A stretch of DNA of 16,313 bases from a virus (IMGVR_UViG_2609459861_000002:1-16313); one strand, 5' to 3'. Numbered from the stretch's first letter, positions 1 through 16,313 are shown. Numbers and translations are program-made. The notes: generated by a model not told the origin, from the letters alone.

Positions 1-1254
1 ATGCTGGAACAAATGGGCATTGCCGCGAAGCAAGCCTCGTATAAATTAGCGCAACTCTCCAGCCGCGAAAAAAATCGCGTGCTGGAAAAAATCGCCGATG
101 AACTGGAAGCACAAAGCGAAATCATCCTCAACGCTAACGCCCAGGATGTTGCTGACGCGCGAGCCAATGGCCTTAGCGAAGCGATGCTTGACCGTCTGGC
201 ACTGACGCCCGCACGGCTGAAAGGCATTGCCGACGATGTACGTCAGGTGTGCAACCTCGCCGATCCGGTGGGGCAGGTAATCGATGGCGGCGTACTGGAC
301 AGCGGCCTGCGTCTTGAGCGTCGTCGCGTACCGCTGGGGGTTATTGGCGTGATTTATGAAGCGCGCCCGAACGTGACGGTTGATGTCGCTTCGCTGTGCC
401 TGAAAACCGGTAATGCGGTGATCCTGCGCGGTGGCAAAGAAACGTGTCGCACTAACGCTGCAACGGTGGCGGTGATTCAGGACGCCCTGAAATCCTGCGG
501 CTTACCGGCGGGTGCCGTGCAGGCGATTGATAATCCTGACCGTGCGCTGGTCAGTGAAATGCTGCGTATGGATAAATACATCGACATGCTGATCCCGCGT
601 GGTGGCGCTGGTTTGCATAAACTGTGCCGTGAACAGTCGACAATCCCGGTGATCACAGGTGGTATAGGCGTATGCCATATTTACGTTGATGAAAGTGTAG
701 AGATCGCTGAAGCATTAAAAGTGATCGTCAACGCGAAAACTCAGCGTCCGAGCACATGTAATACGGTTGAAACGTTGCTGGTGAATAAAAACATCGCCGA
801 TAGCTTCCTGCCCGCATTAAGCAAACAAATGGCGGAAAGCGGCGTGACATTACACGCAGATGCAGCTGCACTGGCGCAGTTGCAGGCAGGCCCTGCGAAG
901 GTGGTTGCTGTTAAAGCCGAAGAGTATGACGATGAGTTTCTGTCATTAGATTTGAACGTCAAAATCGTCAGCGATCTTGACGATGCCATCGCCCATATTC
1001 GTGAACACGGCACACAACACTCCGATGCGATCCTGACCCGCGATATGCGCAACGCCCAGCGTTTTGTTAACGAAGTGGATTCGTCCGCTGTTTACGTTAA
1101 CGCCTCTACGCGTTTTACCGACGGCGGCCAGTTTGGTCTGGGTGCGGAAGTGGCGGTAAGCACACAAAAACTCCACGCGCGTGGCCCAATGGGGCTGGAA
1201 GCACTGACCACTTACAAGTGGATCGGCATTGGTGATTACACCATTCGTGCGTAA
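1..1254 (+). CDS. proA: gamma-glutamyl phosphate reductase (glutamate-5-semialdehyde dehydrogenase)
   Basis: Full-length 417-aa ORF; I recognise the translation as enterobacterial ProA. Window begins at its start codon. Confidence 0.97.
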
Positions 1255-1368
1255 ATAAAACCGGGTGATGCAAAAGTAGCCATTTGATTCACAAGGCCAT
1301 TGACGCATCGCCCGGTTAGTTTTAACCTTGCCCACCGTGATTCACGTTCGTGAACATGTCCTTTCAGG

Positions 1369-1444
1369 GCCGATATAGCTCAGTTGGTAGAGCAGCGCAT
1401 TCGTAATGCGAAGGTCGGAGGTTCGACTCCTCTTATCGGCACCA
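1369..1444 (+). tRNA. thrW: tRNA-Thr, anticodon CGU
   Basis: Cloverleaf readable by eye: acceptor GCCGATA/TATCGGC, D-arm GCTC..GAGC, anticodon stem GCGCA/TGCGA with loop TTCGTAA (anticodon CGT), T-arm GGAGG-TTCGACT-CCTCT, 3' CCA encoded. Sits directly after proA as thrW does in E. coli. Confidence 0.93.
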
Positions 1445-1458
1445 TTTAAATCAATAAG

Positions 1459-2622
1459 TTACACATCATTAGTACCTTCCTTATTTTTTGACTGGGACAA
1501 ATTTGGGACCGATGGGTTCAGGATCGAGTCTATTTGCCGTGCGTGTTCGGTAAGGTGATTAGGTGCGAGGTGAGCATATCGACGAACCATTTCGATAGAC
1601 TCCCAGCCTCCCATTTCCTGTAACACTGACAACGGGACACCGGCTTGAACCAGCCAACTTGCCCAGGTGTGTCTCAAGTCATGAAATCTGAAATCATCAA
1701 TACCAGCTCGTCTCAGCGCCGCTTTCCAGGCTGTGTTTGCGTCATACCGCATCTTCCTGACTGTTGGCGCTTTCGTTCCGTCTGGTTTGGTACAGCTTTC
1801 CTTGTACACAAATACCCAACGGTGATGATTCCCGATTTGTTTTTTCAATACGCGACATGCAGTATCATTCAGCGCAACGCCAATTGCGCGGTTTGATTTA
1901 CTCTCTTCCGGGTTTATCCATGCCACCCGGCGCTGCATATCTATTTGTTGCCATTCAAGGTTGATGATGTTCGAGCGTCTTAAGCCTGTTGCCAGTGCAA
2001 ATTCAACAACAGACTTTAATGGCTCCGGACATTCATCAATCAGCCTTTGTGCTTCATGGGGCTCCAGCCAGCGGATCCGTTTATTCTTTGGTTGAGGCAC
2101 TTTAATAATTGGTGCCTTATCCAGCATTTTCCATTCACGCTCTGCGGCTCTTAGTAGGGCCTTTATAAATGAAAGATGCGTAGCCTTCGTTGCAACGGAC
2201 GCTGGTTTTGGCGTGTATTCTGGAACAGGTTTCCCTTTTTTTCTGCATGCTTCTGCCCTGAGTTTCCAGTTTTCCTCATGACGCCGGTTCGTCATTTTCT
2301 GCATTGCTGAATAAATTTTTGATTCAGTGATGTCTCTTAGTTGCATCCCTGCGAAATGTTGAAGCCAGAATCCGATCCGGCTTTTGTCATCGTCCAGTGA
2401 TTTCTTATGTGCTTTCTCTTCGAGCCACCTGACACACGCTTCCTCAAACGTCATATCAGGTATTTCACCAAGTTTGCTGACCCGCCATGCTTCAGCCTTT
2501 AGCTTGTCATGGAGCTCTGTCGCCTGCCTTTTGTCCTTTGTTCCAAGAGACTGTTTAAATCTTTTACCGTTCGGCAATGTGAAACTGGCGTACCATATTT
2601 CACTTCTGCGGAAGAGTGACAT
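1459..2622 (-). CDS. int: phage tyrosine integrase (lambdoid Int family)
   Basis: 387-aa ORF beginning [27 protein letters not shown], which I recognise as the IntD/IntF-type prophage integrase of E. coli; C-terminal HDLRHTWAS (HxxR) and RRYAHL (catalytic Tyr region). Stop codon lies 15 nt from the tRNA CCA end. Confidence 0.93.
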
Positions 2623-2849
2623 TTTCTTTCCTCTGTTATGCCATCACCCGCGCTCACCTTGATAGTATGCAGCGGAGACTGAAGCGCCGCAATGCAGGCT
2701 TGTCGCGTTGTGAGGTAAGGAGATTTTGGTTTAGTGGGGTCTTTGCGTGTTGCCTGTAGGCGGCCTGTTCGTATCCAGTTGGTGGCGGTTGGTCTGGATA
2801 TCTTAAGAAACTGACAGGCCTCATCGAGTGTGAGGCTGTATGATTCCAT
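2499..2849 (-). CDS. xis: excisionase / AlpA-type helix-turn-helix protein
   Basis: HTH-like segment [29 protein letters not shown] at 2849 is preceded by GAGG with 5-nt spacing; the longer track ORF starts at an upstream GTG. Lies immediately upstream of int, and its 3' end overlaps the int 5' end by about 120 nt, so one of the two ends is uncertain. Confidence 0.65.
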
Positions 2850-3099
2850 GGTTACCTCTGCTTTTTGAACGCATGTCACGTAACTTCTTAATGTGTTCTG
2901 CCGTTTCGATCTCTTCTGCTATCCGATCTGCATCAGCTTTATTCACAGGTTCAAAGTCATGATTAAAGCGGAACATGCTGGCGATACATGTTCTGCCTTT
3001 TCGGATGTAGTGAACTTTGTTGTGGGTAGAACGCAGGATTTTGCAGGGAGTGCCGTGGTGGTCGACGTACCAGGTGTTAGGAAAAATGATTCTGAACAT
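2821..3099 (-). CDS. hypothetical phage protein (92 aa)
   Basis: ORF with protein-like composition; ATG at 3099 preceded by GAGGT at 5-nt spacing; overlaps the xis start by 29 nt as in compact phage operons. Family not recognised. Confidence 0.5.
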   Translation of the reverse strand: MFRIIFPNTWYVDHHGTPCKILRSTHNKVHYIRKGRTCIASMFRFNHDFEPVNKADADRIAEEIETAEHIKKLRDMRSKSRGNHGIIQPHTR

Positions 3100-3146
3100 T
3101 TTTACACCTCAGTTGGACGATGTTGAAATTTGCTGCTTTGAGGCCA

Positions 3147-3365
3147 TCACAGTCCCCATTGTTTGTTCTTAAGTTCGATCTCCTCCTGGCAACTTGCACA
3201 AGTCCGACAACCCTGAACAGCCAGGCGTCTTCGCTCATCTATCGGATCGCCACACTCACAACAATGAGTTGCGGATACAGTCTGGTAGTTCAGACGACGC
3301 ATTTTTATTGCTGTATTGCGCTGTAATTCTTCGATTTCTGATGCTGAATCAATGATGTCTGCCAT
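3147..3365 (-). CDS. TraR/DksA-family C4 zinc-finger protein
   Basis: 72-aa ORF with CCECGDPIDERRRLAVQGCRTCASC, i.e. CxxC-(17)-CxxC, at the C-terminus; size and motif spacing match phage and plasmid TraR homologues. Confidence 0.8.
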   Translation of the reverse strand: MADIIDSASEIEELQRNTAIKMRRLNYQTVSATHCCECGDPIDERRRLAVQGCRTCASCQEEIELKNKQWGL

Positions 3366-9528: not shown

Positions 9529-10020
9529 ATGGATCATGAGTTGAAAAACCTGGTGCTGAATATTAATCAACTGGCGGCTTTATCTGGTCTGCACCGCCAG
9601 ACTGTCGTGGCAAGACTGAAAAACATTCGTCCCGCTGGTGGACATGACAAACTCAAGCTATACCGGTTGACCGATATTCTGACTGAATTTATGGGGTTAC
9701 CACCGCCGGTTGCTGAGGGCGAAATGGATCCACATGAACGCAAAGCCTGGTATCAGTCTGAACGTGAGCGTCTTAAGTTCGAACAGGAAACGGCACAACT
9801 CATTCCGGCCAGTGATGTCAGACGGGAGTTTGCCATCTGGGCAAAAGCGGTCGTGCAGGTGCTGGAGACATTACCGGATATTCTGGAACGTGACTGCGGC
9901 CTGCAGCCTGCTGCTGTGAGCCGTGTTCAGTCCATTATTGATGATCTGCGCGATCAGATAGCCCTGCGGGTGACCGAAGCAGGTGCGGATGATGAGGAGG
10001 AATTACAGCAGGAGGAGTAA
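9529..10020 (+). CDS. terminase small subunit (Nu1 family)
   Basis: 163-aa ORF with N-terminal HTH-like segment LNINQLAALSGLHRQTVVARLKNI and acidic C-terminus; stop overlaps the start of the large-terminase ORF (TAATG), the standard Nu1-A arrangement. Confidence 0.8.
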   Translation: MDHELKNLVLNINQLAALSGLHRQTVVARLKNIRPAGGHDKLKLYRLTDILTEFMGLPPPVAEGEMDPHERKAWYQSERERLKFEQETAQLIPASDVRREFAIWAKAVVQVLETLPDILERDCGLQPAAVSRVQSIIDDLRDQIALRVTEAGADDEEELQQEE

Positions 10021-11312
10021 TGCTGAATCAGGAAACCGCAAAGGCAGCACGAACCGATTCAGGTTATATCCTTCGCGCACCGAGACGAATGCGGGTTGCT
10101 GATGCCGTTGCTCAGTATATGCGAGTGCCCATGGGGGCCGGGAACTCAGTCCCGTGGGATCCGCTGGTGGCACCGTATGTTCTTGAGCCGATGAACTGCC
10201 TGGCCTCGCGTGAATACGACGCAGTGATATTTGTTGGTCCGGCACGAACCGGCAAGACTATCGGCCTGATTGACGGCTGGGTGATTTACAACGTGATTTG
10301 CGATCCTGCGGATATGCTGATCATTCAGATGACGGAGGAAAAAGCCCGCGAACACTCCAAAAAACGACTTGCCAGAACGTTTCGCGTCAGCCCGGAAGTG
10401 GTCAGTCGCCTGAGTCCGAACAAAAATGACAACAACGTTTATGACAGAACATTCCTTGCTGGCAACTACCTGAAAATCGGCTGGCCGTCAGTCAATATCA
10501 TGTCCTCATCAGATTATAAATGCGTGGCGCTGACGGATTATGACCGTTTTCCGGAAGATATTGATGGCGAGGGGGATGCCTTCTCTCTTGCCTCAAAACG
10601 TACCACCACATTTATGTCCAGTGGTATGACGCTGGTGGAGAGTTCCCCCGGCAGGGATGTGAAGGATGTGAAATGGCGACGGACTTCACCGCATGAGGCT
10701 CCACCAACCACGGGGATACTGTCGCTCTATAACCGTGGCGATCGCCGTCGCTGGTACTGGCCCTGTCCACACTGTGGTGAGTATTTTCAGCCCTGCGGCG
10801 ATGTGGTTGCTGGTTTCCGTGATATTGCCGATCCCGTGCTGGCAAGTGAGGCGGCTTATATTCAGTGTCCTTCCTGTTCAGGACGGATTATGCCTGAACA
10901 AAAACGTGAGCTGAACGGACGTGGGGTCTGGTTGCGGGATGGTGAATCCATCAATGCGGATGGCAGTCGTTATGGTGATCCCCGACGCTCACGTATTGCG
11001 TCATTCTGGATTCCACCCATTATCTTTAACGGAATAGCGTATAGCGATCCGGGAAGTGGTAATAACCCGGGAGGTACAAGATACACGGGTTATGGTTTTG
11101 AAGTTCGCAAAAACGGTGTATTAATCGCATCCAGAGAAACTAAAGGGGCCATTCCCGGTAGCTACAGTGCGGTTATTGATATGCCGAGTGGCAGGGGAAG
11201 CGTCACTCTGGAGTTTAAGGTTTTCCATAAAGGCAATCAGTGGGCAGGTAATATCACCGACTGTACGGTGATTGTGACCAAAAAAGCTGCTTCCGGCATC
11301 AGTATTCGTTGA
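10020..11312 (+). pseudogene. terminase large subunit (gpA family), N-terminal ATPase region only, fused in frame to about 100 unrelated codons
   Basis: Residues 1 to about 330 carry gpA-like landmarks (P-loop VGPARTGKT, CPHCGEYFQ zinc motif, GVWLRDG). Lambda gpA is about 640 aa; here the ORF ends at 430 aa and its last 100 residues do not resemble terminase. A hairpin-plus-T6 terminator and lom follow, which is the position of the J 3' end in lambda. Confidence 0.7.
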
Positions 11313-12045: not shown

Positions 12046-15000
12046 ATGGCAGTAAAGATTTCAGGTGTACTGAAAGACGGCGCAGGTAAACCGGTACAGA
12101 ACTGCACAATCCAGCTGAAAGCAAAACGTAACAGCACCACGGTGGTGGCGAACACGGTGGCCTCAGAAAATCCGGATGAAGCCGGGCGTTACAGCATGGA
12201 CGTTGAGTACGGTCAGTACAGCGTTATTCTGTTGGTGGAAGGCTTCCCGCCATCGCATGCCGGGACCATCACCGTGTATGAAGACTCACAACCGGGTACG
12301 CTGAATGATTTTCTCGGTGCCATGACGGAGGATGATGTCCATCCGGAGGCACTGCGCCGCTTTGAACTGATGGTGGAAGAGGTGGCGCGTAACGCGTCCG
12401 CAGTGGCGCAGAACACAGCAGCCGCGAAGAAGTCAGCCAGCGATGCCGGCACATCAGCCCGTGAGGCGGCAACCCGTGCAACTGATGCTGCAGGCTCAGC
12501 ACGTGCAGCCAGCACGTCAGCCGGACAGGCCGCTTCGTCGGCTCAGTCAGCGTCTTCCAGCGCAGGAACGGCATCAACAAAGGCCACTGAAGCATCAAAA
12601 AGTGCTGCCGCTGCAGAGTCTTCAAAAAGCGCGGCAGCCACCAGTGCCGGTGCAGCGAAAACGTCAGAAACGAATGCCGCAGCATCACAAAAATCTGCGG
12701 CCACTTCTGCATCCACCGCGACCACGAAAGCGTCAGAAGCTGCCACCTCAGCCCGGGATGCGTCGGCTTCAAAAGTGGCGGCAAAATCATCAGAAACGAG
12801 CGCAGCCTCGAGCGCCGGCAGTGCAGCTTCCTCGGCAACGGCGGCAGGAAATTCCGCGAAGGCCGCAAAAACGTCTGAGATGAATGCGGATAACAGCGCA
12901 CAGGCGGCAGCAGACTCACAAACTGCATCGGCAAATTCCGCGACAGCAGCCAAAAAATCAGAAACCAACGCGAAAAATAGTGAGTCAGCAGCAAAGGTCA
13001 GCGAAACCAACGCTAAAGCGTCAGAGAACAAGGCGAAAGAATATCTCGACAAGGTCGGGGGACTCGTCAGCCCGATGACGCAATACGATTGGCCCGTTGT
13101 TACTGGTAATGAGTCTTTTTACATAAAGATCGCGAAACTTTCCGATCCCGGAAGCAACAATTGCCATGTAACGCTAATGGTTACTAACGGCGGTGACTAC
13201 AGCTCCCCTTACGGAAACATTGACTTTATCGAGATCTCGGCGCGCGGTCTGCCTTCTTCGCTTACTGCTGATAATGTATCTCGTTACCTGAGTATACGCC
13301 GTTTAGGGCCAACCGGGCTAATCAATAGCATGCAAATGCGTTACGGCCTGGTTAAAGATGATGGCTTTATTGAGGTTTGGGCCTTCCAGCGTGCATTTAT
13401 CAACGGCGCAAAGGTTGCGGTACTGGCGCAGACGGCACGCACGGAATTATACATTCCAGACGGATTTGTTAAGCAAACCGCCGCGCCTTCTGGATATGTT
13501 GAAAGCCCCGTTGTAAGGATTTACGACCAGTTAAACAAGCCGACTAAAGCAGATTTGGGCCTTTCTAATGCTATGCTTACAGGCGCTTTTGGTCTTGGCG
13601 GTAGCGGTCTTGTTTTGGATGGTAAAATGACCGATAAGGAACTACTACAAGAGCTAAGGGCGAAAGGTGGGTGTTTCTGGAGGTCAGGAAAACCAACAGG
13701 TAGCGAATCAACAATTTTCAGCCACGGTTCTGGTATATTCTCGCGGTGCGGCGATACGTGGTCAGCTATTAATATCGATTACGAAAGCGGTAGAGTAAAG
13801 ATTTACTCTAGTAACGATAATAGACTCAACAATGGTACTTTTAACATAAATGAGCTATACGGAACCAAATACAAGCCGTCGAAATCGGATGTTGGACTTG
13901 GTAACGTAACTAACGATGCGCAGGTGAAAAAATCCGGCGACATTATGTCAGGTGATCTGTCGATCACTAAAGCAACACCTTCACTATACCTGCGTTCAAA
14001 AAGTGGAACCGCCCATGTATGGTTCCAAAATGAGGATCAGTCGGAACGCGGCGTTATTTTTGCGCCTACAAATACTGATACGCTTGGCGAAGTTCACATC
14101 AGGGCTAAAAACGCAAAAGGTCAATCAAGTGGTGATTTTATTGTTCGTCACGACGGGATGGTTGAAGCCCGTGATCTCACATTAGCGGGTAAAACTAAAG
14201 GCGCAAAAGCAGAATTTGCAAACACAAGCACTAGCTCCGATGATACTACGGTAAGCATAAAAGGATCTCAGCATACTCCTCTGGTTTTAACGCGCAACAA
14301 CACAATTAAAAATTTATCCATTGGGTTTAAGGTTGATGACGTTGACCAAAAATATCTCGGCATATACGGTGACGGTGATTTGTATTTTGGTGGTTATTCT
14401 GACCACACAAAAAACAGCAAAGTAATTACACAAGCAATACTCGATAGCGGGGTAACGGTAGGCGGCAAAACAACATTTTCTGACCTTGCCACATTTAACG
14501 CAGGTATGTCTGGGCCTATCGAGCCGGAAGCCATTGAAGGCATGACTATCGATCTTAATGACCTTATCATTAAGTTCACGGATAAAGGTTCAGTTAAATA
14601 CTATCACTGCAAAACTGCCGGAGGCGGTTCGAATATTACCAATAAGCCTGACGGCGTAGGCGGCAACTTTTTGCTTCGTGTAGAGTCAATTCGTAAGGTT
14701 AGTGATTCAGATTATATAAACATGCAAACGCTGATTAGCGGCGACAAAGGACGCGTGCATGTTCGTTTTGTTACTAATGGTAATTGGACAGCATGGAGCG
14801 AGCATGTTGTTTCAGGATGGAATCAGGATGTGACCGTCAGGTCGTTAACCTCGACGACTCCATCAAAATTAGGCGGCGGGCGTGTTGATGTGCTGGGGAG
14901 TACGTCAGATTACAGTAGTATGAATTGTGCTGTGCGCGGTGTTGATAGCACTGGAACCAATTCGGCGTGGTCAGTAGGTACATCGAAAAACACGGGAAAA

Positions 15001-15804
15001 ATGTTGTGCCTTAAAAACCACAGAAGCAGCGCTCAAGTGCTGTTAAATGGCGATGATGGCGCGGTGCAACTACTAAGCGGTACTGTCAACGGTGCTACAG
15101 CACAGGCGCTAACCATCAACAAAGATGAGGTTAACTCAACTGCTGATTTAGTAATTAGAAAACAGTCAGGGACTGGCAATCGTTTTGTTTTAAAGAACGC
15201 AGGTAATGCAGAACTACCGTTTAACATCAGTGTATGGGGTTCAAGTGATCGACAAAACGTTTTTGAGGTTGGAACGTCTGCTGCGTATCTGTTTTATGCG
15301 CAAAGAACGCCAGCAGGCCAGTTGTTTGATGTAAATGGCGCTATTAATTGCACAACGCTGAATCAGTCATCAGACCGCGACCTTAAAGACGATATTCTCG
15401 TTATCAGCGACGCGACGAAAGCAATCCGCAAAATGAACGGGTACACCTACACGCTCAAGGAAAACGGCCTTCCTTATGCTGGCGTTATTGCACAGGAAGT
15501 AATGGAGGCGCTACCGGAAGCCGTAGGATCGTTTACTCGTTACGGTGAAGAATTGCAGGGTCCGACCATTGATGGCAACGAGCTACGCGAAGAAACGCGT
15601 TACCTCAATGTTGATTATGCGGCGGTGACTGGTTTACTTGTCCAGGTCGCCCGTGAAACAGATGATCGCGTTACCGCGCTGGAAGAGGAAAACACAACGC
15701 TACGTCAAAATCTGGCAACAGCAGACACCCGGATCAGCACTCTGGAAAATCAGGTAAGCGAACTGGTTGCACTTGTCCGGCAGTTAACAGGAAGCGAACA
15801 TTGA
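12046..15804 (+). CDS. stf: mosaic side tail fibre: lambda Stf-like N-terminus, divergent central domain, C-terminal intramolecular chaperone (peptidase S74-like) domain
   Basis: 1252-aa ORF. N-terminus MAVKISGVLKDGAGKPVQNCTIQLKA... is near-identical to lambda Stf as I recall it, followed by an Ala/Ser/Thr/Lys-rich repetitive shaft. Central region, from about residue 337, is unrelated. C-terminal 143 aa begin SS/DRDLK (Ser and Lys at i+5) and end in a heptad-like coiled coil, as in self-cleaving chaperone domains of endosialidase and T5 pb1-type fibres. Confidence 0.9.
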   Translation: MAVKISGVLKDGAGKPVQNCTIQLKAKRNSTTVVANTVASENPDEAGRYSMDVEYGQYSVILLVEGFPPSHAGTITVYEDSQPGTLNDFLGAMTEDDVHPEALRRFELMVEEVARNASAVAQNTAAAKKSASDAGTSAREAATRATDAAGSARAASTSAGQAASSAQSASSSAGTASTKATEASKSAAAAESSKSAAATSAGAAKTSETNAAASQKSAATSASTATTKASEAATSARDASASKVAAKSSETSAASSAGSAASSATAAGNSAKAAKTSEMNADNSAQAAADSQTASANSATAAKKSETNAKNSESAAKVSETNAKASENKAKEYLDKVGGLVSPMTQYDWPVVTGNESFYIKIAKLSDPGSNNCHVTLMVTNGGDYSSPYGNIDFIEISARGLPSSLTADNVSRYLSIRRLGPTGLINSMQMRYGLVKDDGFIEVWAFQRAFINGAKVAVLAQTARTELYIPDGFVKQTAAPSGYVESPVVRIYDQLNKPTKADLGLSNAMLTGAFGLGGSGLVLDGKMTDKELLQELRAKGGCFWRSGKPTGSESTIFSHGSGIFSRCGDTWSAINIDYESGRVKIYSSNDNRLNNGTFNINELYGTKYKPSKSDVGLGNVTNDAQVKKSGDIMSGDLSITKATPSLYLRSKSGTAHVWFQNEDQSERGVIFAPTNTDTLGEVHIRAKNAKGQSSGDFIVRHDGMVEARDLTLAGKTKGAKAEFANTSTSSDDTTVSIKGSQHTPLVLTRNNTIKNLSIGFKVDDVDQKYLGIYGDGDLYFGGYSDHTKNSKVITQAILDSGVTVGGKTTFSDLATFNAGMSGPIEPEAIEGMTIDLNDLIIKFTDKGSVKYYHCKTAGGGSNITNKPDGVGGNFLLRVESIRKVSDSDYINMQTLISGDKGRVHVRFVTNGNWTAWSEHVVSGWNQDVTVRSLTSTTPSKLGGGRVDVLGSTSDYSSMNCAVRGVDSTGTNSAWSVGTSKNTGKMLCLKNHRSSAQVLLNGDDGAVQLLSGTVNGATAQALTINKDEVNSTADLVIRKQSGTGNRFVLKNAGNAELPFNISVWGSSDRQNVFEVGTSAAYLFYAQRTPAGQLFDVNGAINCTTLNQSSDRDLKDDILVISDATKAIRKMNGYTYTLKENGLPYAGVIAQEVMEALPEAVGSFTRYGEELQGPTIDGNELREETRYLNVDYAAVTGLLVQVARETDDRVTALEEENTTLRQNLATADTRISTLENQVSELVALVRQLTGSEH
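12400..13050 (+). repeat. degenerate tandem coding repeats (Ala/Ser/Thr/Lys-rich shaft of the tail fibre)
   Basis: Recurring motifs KTSETNA, KSSETSA, KTSEMNA, KKSETNA, KVSETNA in the translation; GC-rich, and it generates long spurious ORFs in other frames and on the opposite strand. Confidence 0.6.
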
Positions 15805-15984
15805 TATCCTTCAAGCTCTGAAGGAGGCTGTTCCCGGTACGTTCAGACTGTTGTTGAGCTGGAGATCGCAACGGAGGAAGAAACCTCATTGCTGGAAGCC
15901 TGGAAAAAATATCGGGTGTTGCTGAACCGTGTTAATACAACAACTGCACCGGATATTGAGTGGCCAGAAGAACCTATAGGGTAA
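15805..15984 (+). pseudogene. tail fibre assembly protein (Tfa), 3' remnant without start codon
   Basis: The 60 codons immediately after the fibre TGA, in the same frame, end ...[36 protein letters not shown], which reads as a Tfa C-terminus; there is no ATG/GTG with an SD in this frame. Confidence 0.5.
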
Positions 15985-16054
15985 ATTCGTAATGATTACC
16001 TAAATACGTTATTCTTTTGTTCAAAAAGTGATTTTGCTATAGGTAGGGAGTATG

Positions 16055-16313
16055 GGTGATGCTGCCAACTTACTGATTTAGTGTATGATGGTGTTTTTGA
16101 GGTGCTCCAGTGGCTTCTGTTTCTATCAGCTGTCCCTCCTGTTCAGCTACTGACGGGGTGGTGCGTAACGGCAAAAGCACCGCCGGACATCAGCGCTATC
16201 TCTGCTCTCACTGCCGTAAAACATGGCAACTGCAGTTCACTTACACCGCTTCTCAACCCGGTACGCACCAGAAAATCATTGATATGGCCATGAATGGCGT
16301 TGGATGCCGGGCA
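16055..16313 (+). mobile_element. IS1 insertion sequence, left end (partial, runs off the window)
   Basis: From GGTGATGCTGCCAACTTACTGAT (the IS1 terminal inverted repeat) onward the sequence matches IS1 as I remember it, through the insA 5' region. Confidence 0.92.
16110..16313 (+). CDS. insA: IS1 InsA (partial, 5' portion)
   Basis: GTG start at 16110; hand translation gives [68 protein letters not shown], the InsA N-terminus. Missed by the ORF track because it has no stop inside the window. Confidence 0.88.

Follow-up and report, generated by a model that had tools for sequence, protein, structure and literature searches.

Behind the stop codon of a side tail fibre gene in the window (the whole stretch of 16,313 nucleotides of viral DNA analyzed here) lies the 3' quarter of a lambda-type tail fibre assembly gene (tfa), with no start codon of its own. 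This stretch is very probably a nonfunctional relic of tfa that was left by a fibre-module swap. It stands behind a fibre with a C-terminal Peptidase_S74 domain, and the related phage ev099 has an intact tfa in the same flank, which upholds the proposal of an earlier note on this DNA that the incoming fibre module deleted the 5' part of the resident tfa.

A tfa 3' remnant behind the fibre stop

In the frame of the fibre gene, 59 sense codons are open past the TGA stop (15802 to 15804) before a TAA is reached at 15982 to 15984. The earlier note had read 60 codons from this point as the C terminus of a tail fibre assembly protein (Tfa) that followed the TGA without a gap, in the same frame and lacking a start codon. 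This reading holds for the last 47 codons (15841 to 15981), but the first 12 (15805 to 15840) have no similarity to Tfa, and the tfa sequence does not demonstrably adjoin the fibre stop. The frame itself is open, and the earliest ATG, GTG, or TTG found in it past the TGA is a TTG at 15889, which lies inside the conserved domain.

When the full 193-aa Tfa of ev099 was compared with the window by tblastn, only residues 147 to 193 were matched, at 15841 to 15981 (85% identity; E = 1e-21), confirming that the stretch is the 3' portion of a lambda-type tfa. The remnant (15841 to 15984, plus strand) comprises codons 147 to 193 of the 193-aa protein and the TAA. Approximately 439 nt (146 codons) of tfa are missing, and the N-terminal part that they encode was absent from every frame and strand of the window in the same search; neither this search nor a scan of the window found an upstream start in another frame from which a full-length Tfa could be made. 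Similarity to Tfa proteins is also evident from Pfam, in which residues 13 to 57 of the 59 match positions 86 to 130 of the 131 in the Caudo_TAP profile (PF02413; E = 2e-19), and residues 133 to 174 of the 175 in Mu TfaU (PDB 5yvq) align with the remnant. With the 59 residues as the query, tblastn matched 264 of 50,697 phage records, and nearly all of the alignments listed begin at residue 13.

Tfa proteins consist of a variable N-terminal fibre-binding domain and a conserved C-terminal helical domain that trimerizes (PMC9608196, summarizing North et al. 2019). The conserved helical domain, with the pattern ...ATxEExxxLxAWKxYRVLLxRVDxxxxPDIxWP, is present in the remnant. The variable fibre-binding domain and the full length of about 175 to 195 aa are absent from the window, as is a start codon for tfa at the fibre stop, whether directly behind it or overlapping it; ev099, by comparison, has a tfa start that overlaps the stop of stf. 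Compared with lambda-type Tfa (lambda Tfa and TfaQ/TfaR), the remnant keeps the last 47 codons, the stop, and the downstream flank, but it lacks the start and the N-terminal three quarters of the protein, i.e., the 146 codons of the fibre-binding part, and is a pseudogene fragment.

Related phages have a full tfa at this position. In ev099 the gene is 582 nt long and shares its 3' end and the flank behind it with the window, which matches this phage over 15842 to 16054 at 92.5% identity; mEp332 also matches the window over this interval. The native flank downstream of tfa (15985 to 16054, plus strand) is the one that lies behind the full-length gene in both of these phages. The abrupt loss of homology at 15842, together with an intact gene in relatives that share the flank up to 16054, places the stretch among recombination scars.

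The upstream fibre carries its own chaperone domain

The side tail fibre gene (12046 to 15804, plus strand) encodes 1,252 aa. Pfam places phage_tail_N, the lambdoid N-terminal anchor, at residues 1 to 134 and Peptidase_S74 at residues 1109 to 1160, the latter, a "chaperone of endosialidase" domain, being the intramolecular chaperone core encoded at 15370 to 15525 on the plus strand (PF13884; E = 2e-12). The S74 stretch can be aligned to the S16 long-tail-fibre chain 6f45. Within the core is the motif S1109-DRDL-K1114 (Ser-x4-Lys), which has the spacing of a self-cleaving Ser/Lys pair, and we take S1109 and K1114 to be that pair on the basis of published work on K1F and T5. With both the C-terminal Peptidase_S74 domain and the Ser/Lys pair present, the protein belongs to the fibres with an S74 intramolecular chaperone. 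The fibre of a close relative, mEp010, ends at the same point (...QLTGSEK*) and is then followed by a terminator, which indicates that the TGA at 15802 to 15804 is the native fibre stop and that the fibre is not truncated. Over 15100 to 15860, the window and the Ayreon genome have 100% identity. The fibre gene is itself mosaic: PhiR70_1 (L006) matches its 5' 1 kb (94%) and its 3' 0.7 kb (91%), and the middle differs.

Separate Tfa proteins and S74 chaperone domains are described in the literature as alternative solutions. The K1F endosialidase, T5 pb1, and S16 gp37 resemble the window fibre in having a C-terminal Peptidase_S74 domain with the Ser-x4-Lys motif, and proteins of this type do not need a separate chaperone according to the literature. 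By analogy, a fibre that carries its own C-terminal S74 chaperone could plausibly dispense with Tfa. Unlike these proteins, the window fibre has its S74 module on a lambdoid Stf N-terminal anchor and a stranded tfa fragment behind it. The whole genome of Ayreon contains this fibre without any other Tfa-like sequence, as judged by tblastn with the full Tfa. Ayreon was obtained from pond water and isolated on a K-12 derivative (PMC5764929), and the tfa genes of cryptic prophages in K-12 hosts could, in principle, act in trans on an Ayreon-type fibre.

Distribution and single origin of the joint

At least 80% of the interval from 15300 to 16055 is present in 793 of 5,426 complete Escherichia coli genomes. 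In the two genomes that were inspected (UK_Dog_Liverpool and EC-TO75), the joint sits in a decayed prophage next to ydfJ, and the equivalent of 15853 to 15984 is annotated by PGAP as a pseudogene; the RefSeq entry "tail fiber assembly protein, incomplete, missing N-terminus" represents the identical joint. The window copy differs from these RefSeq pseudogenes in its hybrid tail (...WPEEPIG) and in the IS1 behind it. Partial proteins of 57 to 60 aa from the same joint have also been deposited in databases. By exact-pattern search, the spacer that separates the fibre stop from the tfa sequence was located in 98 contigs, 50 of them from IMG/VR and 48 from metagenomes, and the cultured phages Ayreon, mEp460, and PhiR70_1 have the joint as well.

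The same fibre end lies upstream at 103 of 104 loci, the window included, and the tfa part starts at the same position at all 104 as far as their sequence reaches. Where downstream sequence is present at these loci from IMG/VR and metagenomes, the spacer always adjoins the tfa remnant, and in IMG/VR the 22-mer that opens the tfa part is confined to this joint. Judged from these sequences, the joint arose once, long ago, and has spread widely. The swap event itself did not take place in this genome, and the feature is an ordinary one that is already annotated in public genomes.

A second, independent joint was found in HannyBb, 2G7b, and one Escherichia ruysiae genome; Tritos and PhiR63_1 have the same match pattern as the HannyBb joint and are assigned to it on the match pattern alone. 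In the HannyBb type, a different S74 fibre is followed by a gene for a 99-aa membrane protein, 19 nt, and a tfa remnant, which begins at GCAACGGAGGAAGAA, 13 nt deeper into tfa than that of the window. The reading frame of the HannyBb-type remnant differs from that of the upstream stop, and the tfa frame is closed by a stop codon four codons upstream. A protein search also returned many other 3' remnants of E. coli tfa, with other left partners, under the name "tail fiber assembly protein, partial." The second joint and these many partial genes indicate that scars of this class, with the 3' end of tfa left stranded, are common in E. coli prophages.

A mosaic right end

The left side of the joint is invariant among carriers. 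The remnants of the carriers have about 15 different C-terminal tails, each with correspondingly different downstream DNA. These tails include PALP, PAVPVME (the lambda type), PTNPVRE, PVAPIG, PEEPDTV/M, PAAPKCNSLELITCE, and VNPVWPPPSKR. Five of the tails are paired with both haplotypes of the spacer, a four-gamete violation within approximately 130 nt, which indicates repeated recombination within that distance.

The window copy is a recombinant of this kind by column-by-column comparison. It is identical to Ayreon through 15908 and differs from it at 15909, 15934, 15940, and 15951, and from 15934 to 16054 it follows the ev099/UK_Dog type. This places the crossover at 15910 to 15933 (plus strand), with Ayreon-type sequence on the left and ev099/UK_Dog-type sequence on the right. 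The resulting tail, ...WPEEPIG, is unique among the 104 loci. On this comparison, a homologous crossover within the conserved block of tfa either brought in or reshaped the window copy. This block may be the right homology arm of the spreading fibre cassette, with the conserved 5' end of stf as the left one.

A switch of fibre and tfa by a serine invertase (Pin/Gin) was considered and rejected for want of a crossover site and an invertase gene: the crossover repeat of the e14 invertase, TTGGTTTGGGAGAAGG, had no match in the window at up to three mismatches, and no invertase gene was found before the IS1. In UK_Dog_Liverpool, two weak copies of the conserved tfa 3' block (72 to 75% identity; L001, 4270 to 4373 and 5012 to 5113) lie between the remnant and ydfJ, and these extra copies may be stacked scars of earlier swaps.

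The spacer and the position of the breakpoint

The spacer between the fibre stop and the remnant comprises 12 in-frame codons (15805 to 15840, plus strand), the non-tfa DNA extending over 37 nt (15805 to 15841), and DNA homology to full-length tfa begins at 15842. The true breakpoint is somewhere in 15805 to 15841 on the sequence comparison and is not demonstrably at the TGA. The spacer was absent from GTDB species representatives, and no intermediate, whether a complete tfa behind an S74 fibre or the spacer in its donor context, was found in GTDB representatives, IMG/VR, or metagenomes. When the fibre end was searched for in the absence of the spacer, the only matches were proviruses that had been trimmed 3 nt past the pattern, at the fibre stop. 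Twelve IMG/VR provirus records (L120 to L131) end there, a database artefact, their boundaries presumably having been trimmed at the last called viral gene. Among relatives of the fibre in other species, only the HannyBb-type joint was found, in E. ruysiae.

One reading of the spacer puts the joint exactly at the TGA and derives the 12 codons from a divergent resident tfa whose full-length form is unsampled. The linkage of spacer and remnant is constant, whereas the left partners are three: the S74 fibre end, lom' (L056), and H' (L118). There is a weak alignment, beginning at residue 5, with a P2-like Tfa of Klebsiella (SEAGTAISPLQ), and the first 22 nt of the tfa part have 73% identity to ev099, compared with about 92% over the whole match from 15842 to 16054. 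However, no full-length protein covers residues 1 to 12, either among 5.8 billion protein sequences, where every match that covers these residues is a partial of at most 71 aa from the same joint, or among the 264 matches in phage records. The lom' and H' partners, moreover, plainly result from secondary deletions, which show short microhomology (TA or ATATC) and lie beside a hairpin. An origin of the spacer in an unsampled tfa is therefore unlikely.

The hairpin in question has a 7-bp stem (TCCTTCA-AGCTC-TGAAGGA; 15807 to 15825, plus strand) and no T run. The two deletions, which are large, independent, and in other genomes, both terminate no more than approximately 5 nt from the base that opens the spacer (15805 to 15809 of the window), next to this hairpin and the palindrome GATATC. 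The deletion in L056 (about 10300, minus strand) starts from approximately codon 53 of lom and yields a 110-aa Lom'-'Tfa fusion open reading frame (ORF), which was rejected as an ancestor of the joint, being the product of a secondary deletion; that in L118 (4040 to 4046) starts from codon 5 of tail gene H. The start of the spacer may be a hot spot for deletions. An E. coli contig (L119, 362 to 565) has a transposase gene with an integrase-core (rve) domain, and some 70 nt separate the end of this gene from the point, at approximately 15830 of the window, from which the contig is again homologous to the spacer; the next ORF runs from the intervening DNA into the tfa remnant. Substitutions in the spacer across about 105 loci occur only at 15817, 15826, and 15835, all of which are third positions in the frame of 15803. 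Coding in that frame was considered and dropped, the pattern resting on three events (P of approximately 0.1) in a frame with no start.

For a remnant to be in frame with the fibre, with the frame open through a 12-codon spacer, the chance expectation is approximately 0.33 x 0.56 = 0.19, and the coincidence is not significant. The shared frame of fibre and remnant is thus most likely due to chance.

Readthrough, internal initiation, and retention for function

The shared frame could also mean that programmed readthrough of the TGA adds the 59 residues, including the trimerization helices of Tfa, to some fibre molecules and so aids assembly. The frame is open, most carriers keep it so, and the part retained is exactly the conserved C-terminal domain of Tfa. 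Neither the identity of the stop nor the downstream frame is conserved, however: TAA replaces TGA in 2 of 103 carriers (L070 and L089), two others have independent 1-nt frameshifts (L019 and L109), and in the independently formed HannyBb type the frame is not shared, with a stop four codons upstream. The three substitutions in the spacer are all nonsynonymous and radical in the fibre frame (S/P, G/S, and R/W), and to these the joint-specific stretch as a whole adds V/A, V/L, and E/G. No stimulatory context or RNA structure was found past the stop (fold z = 0.27), and the base that follows the TGA in the window is T, which makes for efficient termination in E. coli. From the biology of S74 proteins, the extension would also be joined to the 144-residue chaperone piece, which is cleaved from the mature fibre. 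Readthrough is therefore exceedingly improbable, and the earlier note's preference for a recombination joint over readthrough is borne out by the TAA carriers, the frameshifts, and the out-of-frame second joint. Recency and repeated patching from intact tfa can account for the open frame that approximately 94% of copies keep, although constraint is still compatible with it. Counts of synonymous and nonsynonymous changes in the conserved block were set aside because this block has been repeatedly overwritten from intact tfa.

Alternatively, the remnant might be expressed alone from the TTG at 15889 as a 31-aa peptide that, for example, aids trimerization or binds the host surface. The corresponding ORF exists (15889 to 15984), and a GGAGG (15873 to 15877) lies 11 nt upstream of the TTG. 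Both, however, are codons of the ...TEEE..SLL... sequence in every full-length tfa and are uninformative about expression, and nothing relevant was found in a search for promoters and terminators at 15600 to 16120. Carriers tolerate decay: two have the frameshifts, two have 3' deletions, and in two the R of the YRVLL motif is changed to W, and these copies are affected within the TTG ORF. Such a peptide is highly unlikely. It is likewise very doubtful that the tfa 3' block has been retained for a function in general, whether as a selected "handle" for cassette hopping or as a small C-terminal Tfa domain that is translated, by readthrough or from the TTG at 15889, and aids trimerization. The only hint in this direction is that the second joint behind an S74 fibre starts within 13 nt of the first.

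Prophage context

A defective prophage, located next to proA/thrW, makes up the window. Its first 3,200 nt (1 to 3200) comprise the host flank (proA and tRNA-Thr) and a prophage integrase and are 100% identical to several E. coli genomes, but its whole arrangement occurs in no complete E. coli genome of the collection. A 430-aa ORF (10020 to 11312) consists of a terminase large-subunit ATPase (residues 41 to 304) and the C-terminal receptor-binding domain of the tail-tip protein J (residues 350 to 429). This terminase-A'/'J fusion represents one deletion of all the head and tail genes, and thus the prophage is defective; the fibre and its scar are relics within a relic.

The left end of an IS1 with insA (16055 to 16313, plus strand) was identified from the Pfam N- and C-terminal domains of InsA. 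The homology of the relatives stops at 16054, where the element interrupts the flank, and the element is not part of the scar. It sits 70 nt past the stop of the remnant. In EC-TO75 (L002, 3732 to 4429), another IS1 lies in the same AT-rich flank, in the opposite orientation and about 40 nt further upstream, and the flank looks like a repeated target of IS1.

Proposed origin and implications of the scar

From the anatomy of the joint, its single origin and spread, its mosaic right end, and the lack of any other tfa in Ayreon, a viable phage, we infer the following order of events. Distal stf and the first 146 or so codons of the adjoining tfa would have been replaced once, in a lambdoid ancestor, probably in a single illegitimate joining event. 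The incoming module ended in its own S74 intramolecular chaperone, with which the fibre would fold and trimerize and which would then cut itself off. A separate Tfa would no longer have been needed, and the loss of its fibre-binding N-terminal domain would have been without cost. The last 47 codons of tfa would thereby have been stranded behind the fibre stop, after 37 nt and with no start. The 3' block, which is the most conserved tfa DNA, may then have served together with the 5' end of stf as a homology arm, so that the whole fibre cassette would have spread to many phage backbones by homologous recombination, the window being one such recombinant. The shared reading frame would be an accident of the original joint that its descendants inherited.

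Mosaic exchange of tail fibres among P2, Mu, P1, lambda, and the T-even phages was reportedly described by Haggard-Ljungquist in 1992 and by Sandmeier in 1994. In those phages, as here, cassettes of the distal fibre and its chaperone move between unrelated phages and leave abrupt breakpoints of homology. Nothing essential differs in the window; what is particular to it is that a chaperone-independent module would have made the adjacent chaperone gene redundant.

Annotators should label the stretch a fragment of a tfa pseudogene and should neither merge it with the fibre gene nor call it a gene. Beyond annotation, it is of little importance. It may serve as a textbook case of two points already known: a chaperone built into a fibre makes the neighboring chaperone gene redundant, and the conserved ends of stf and tfa act as homology arms for the exchange of host-range cassettes. 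By analogy, it would also offer the engineering of lambda side fibres a natural precedent for placing distal modules of the S74 type on a lambdoid anchor without Tfa.
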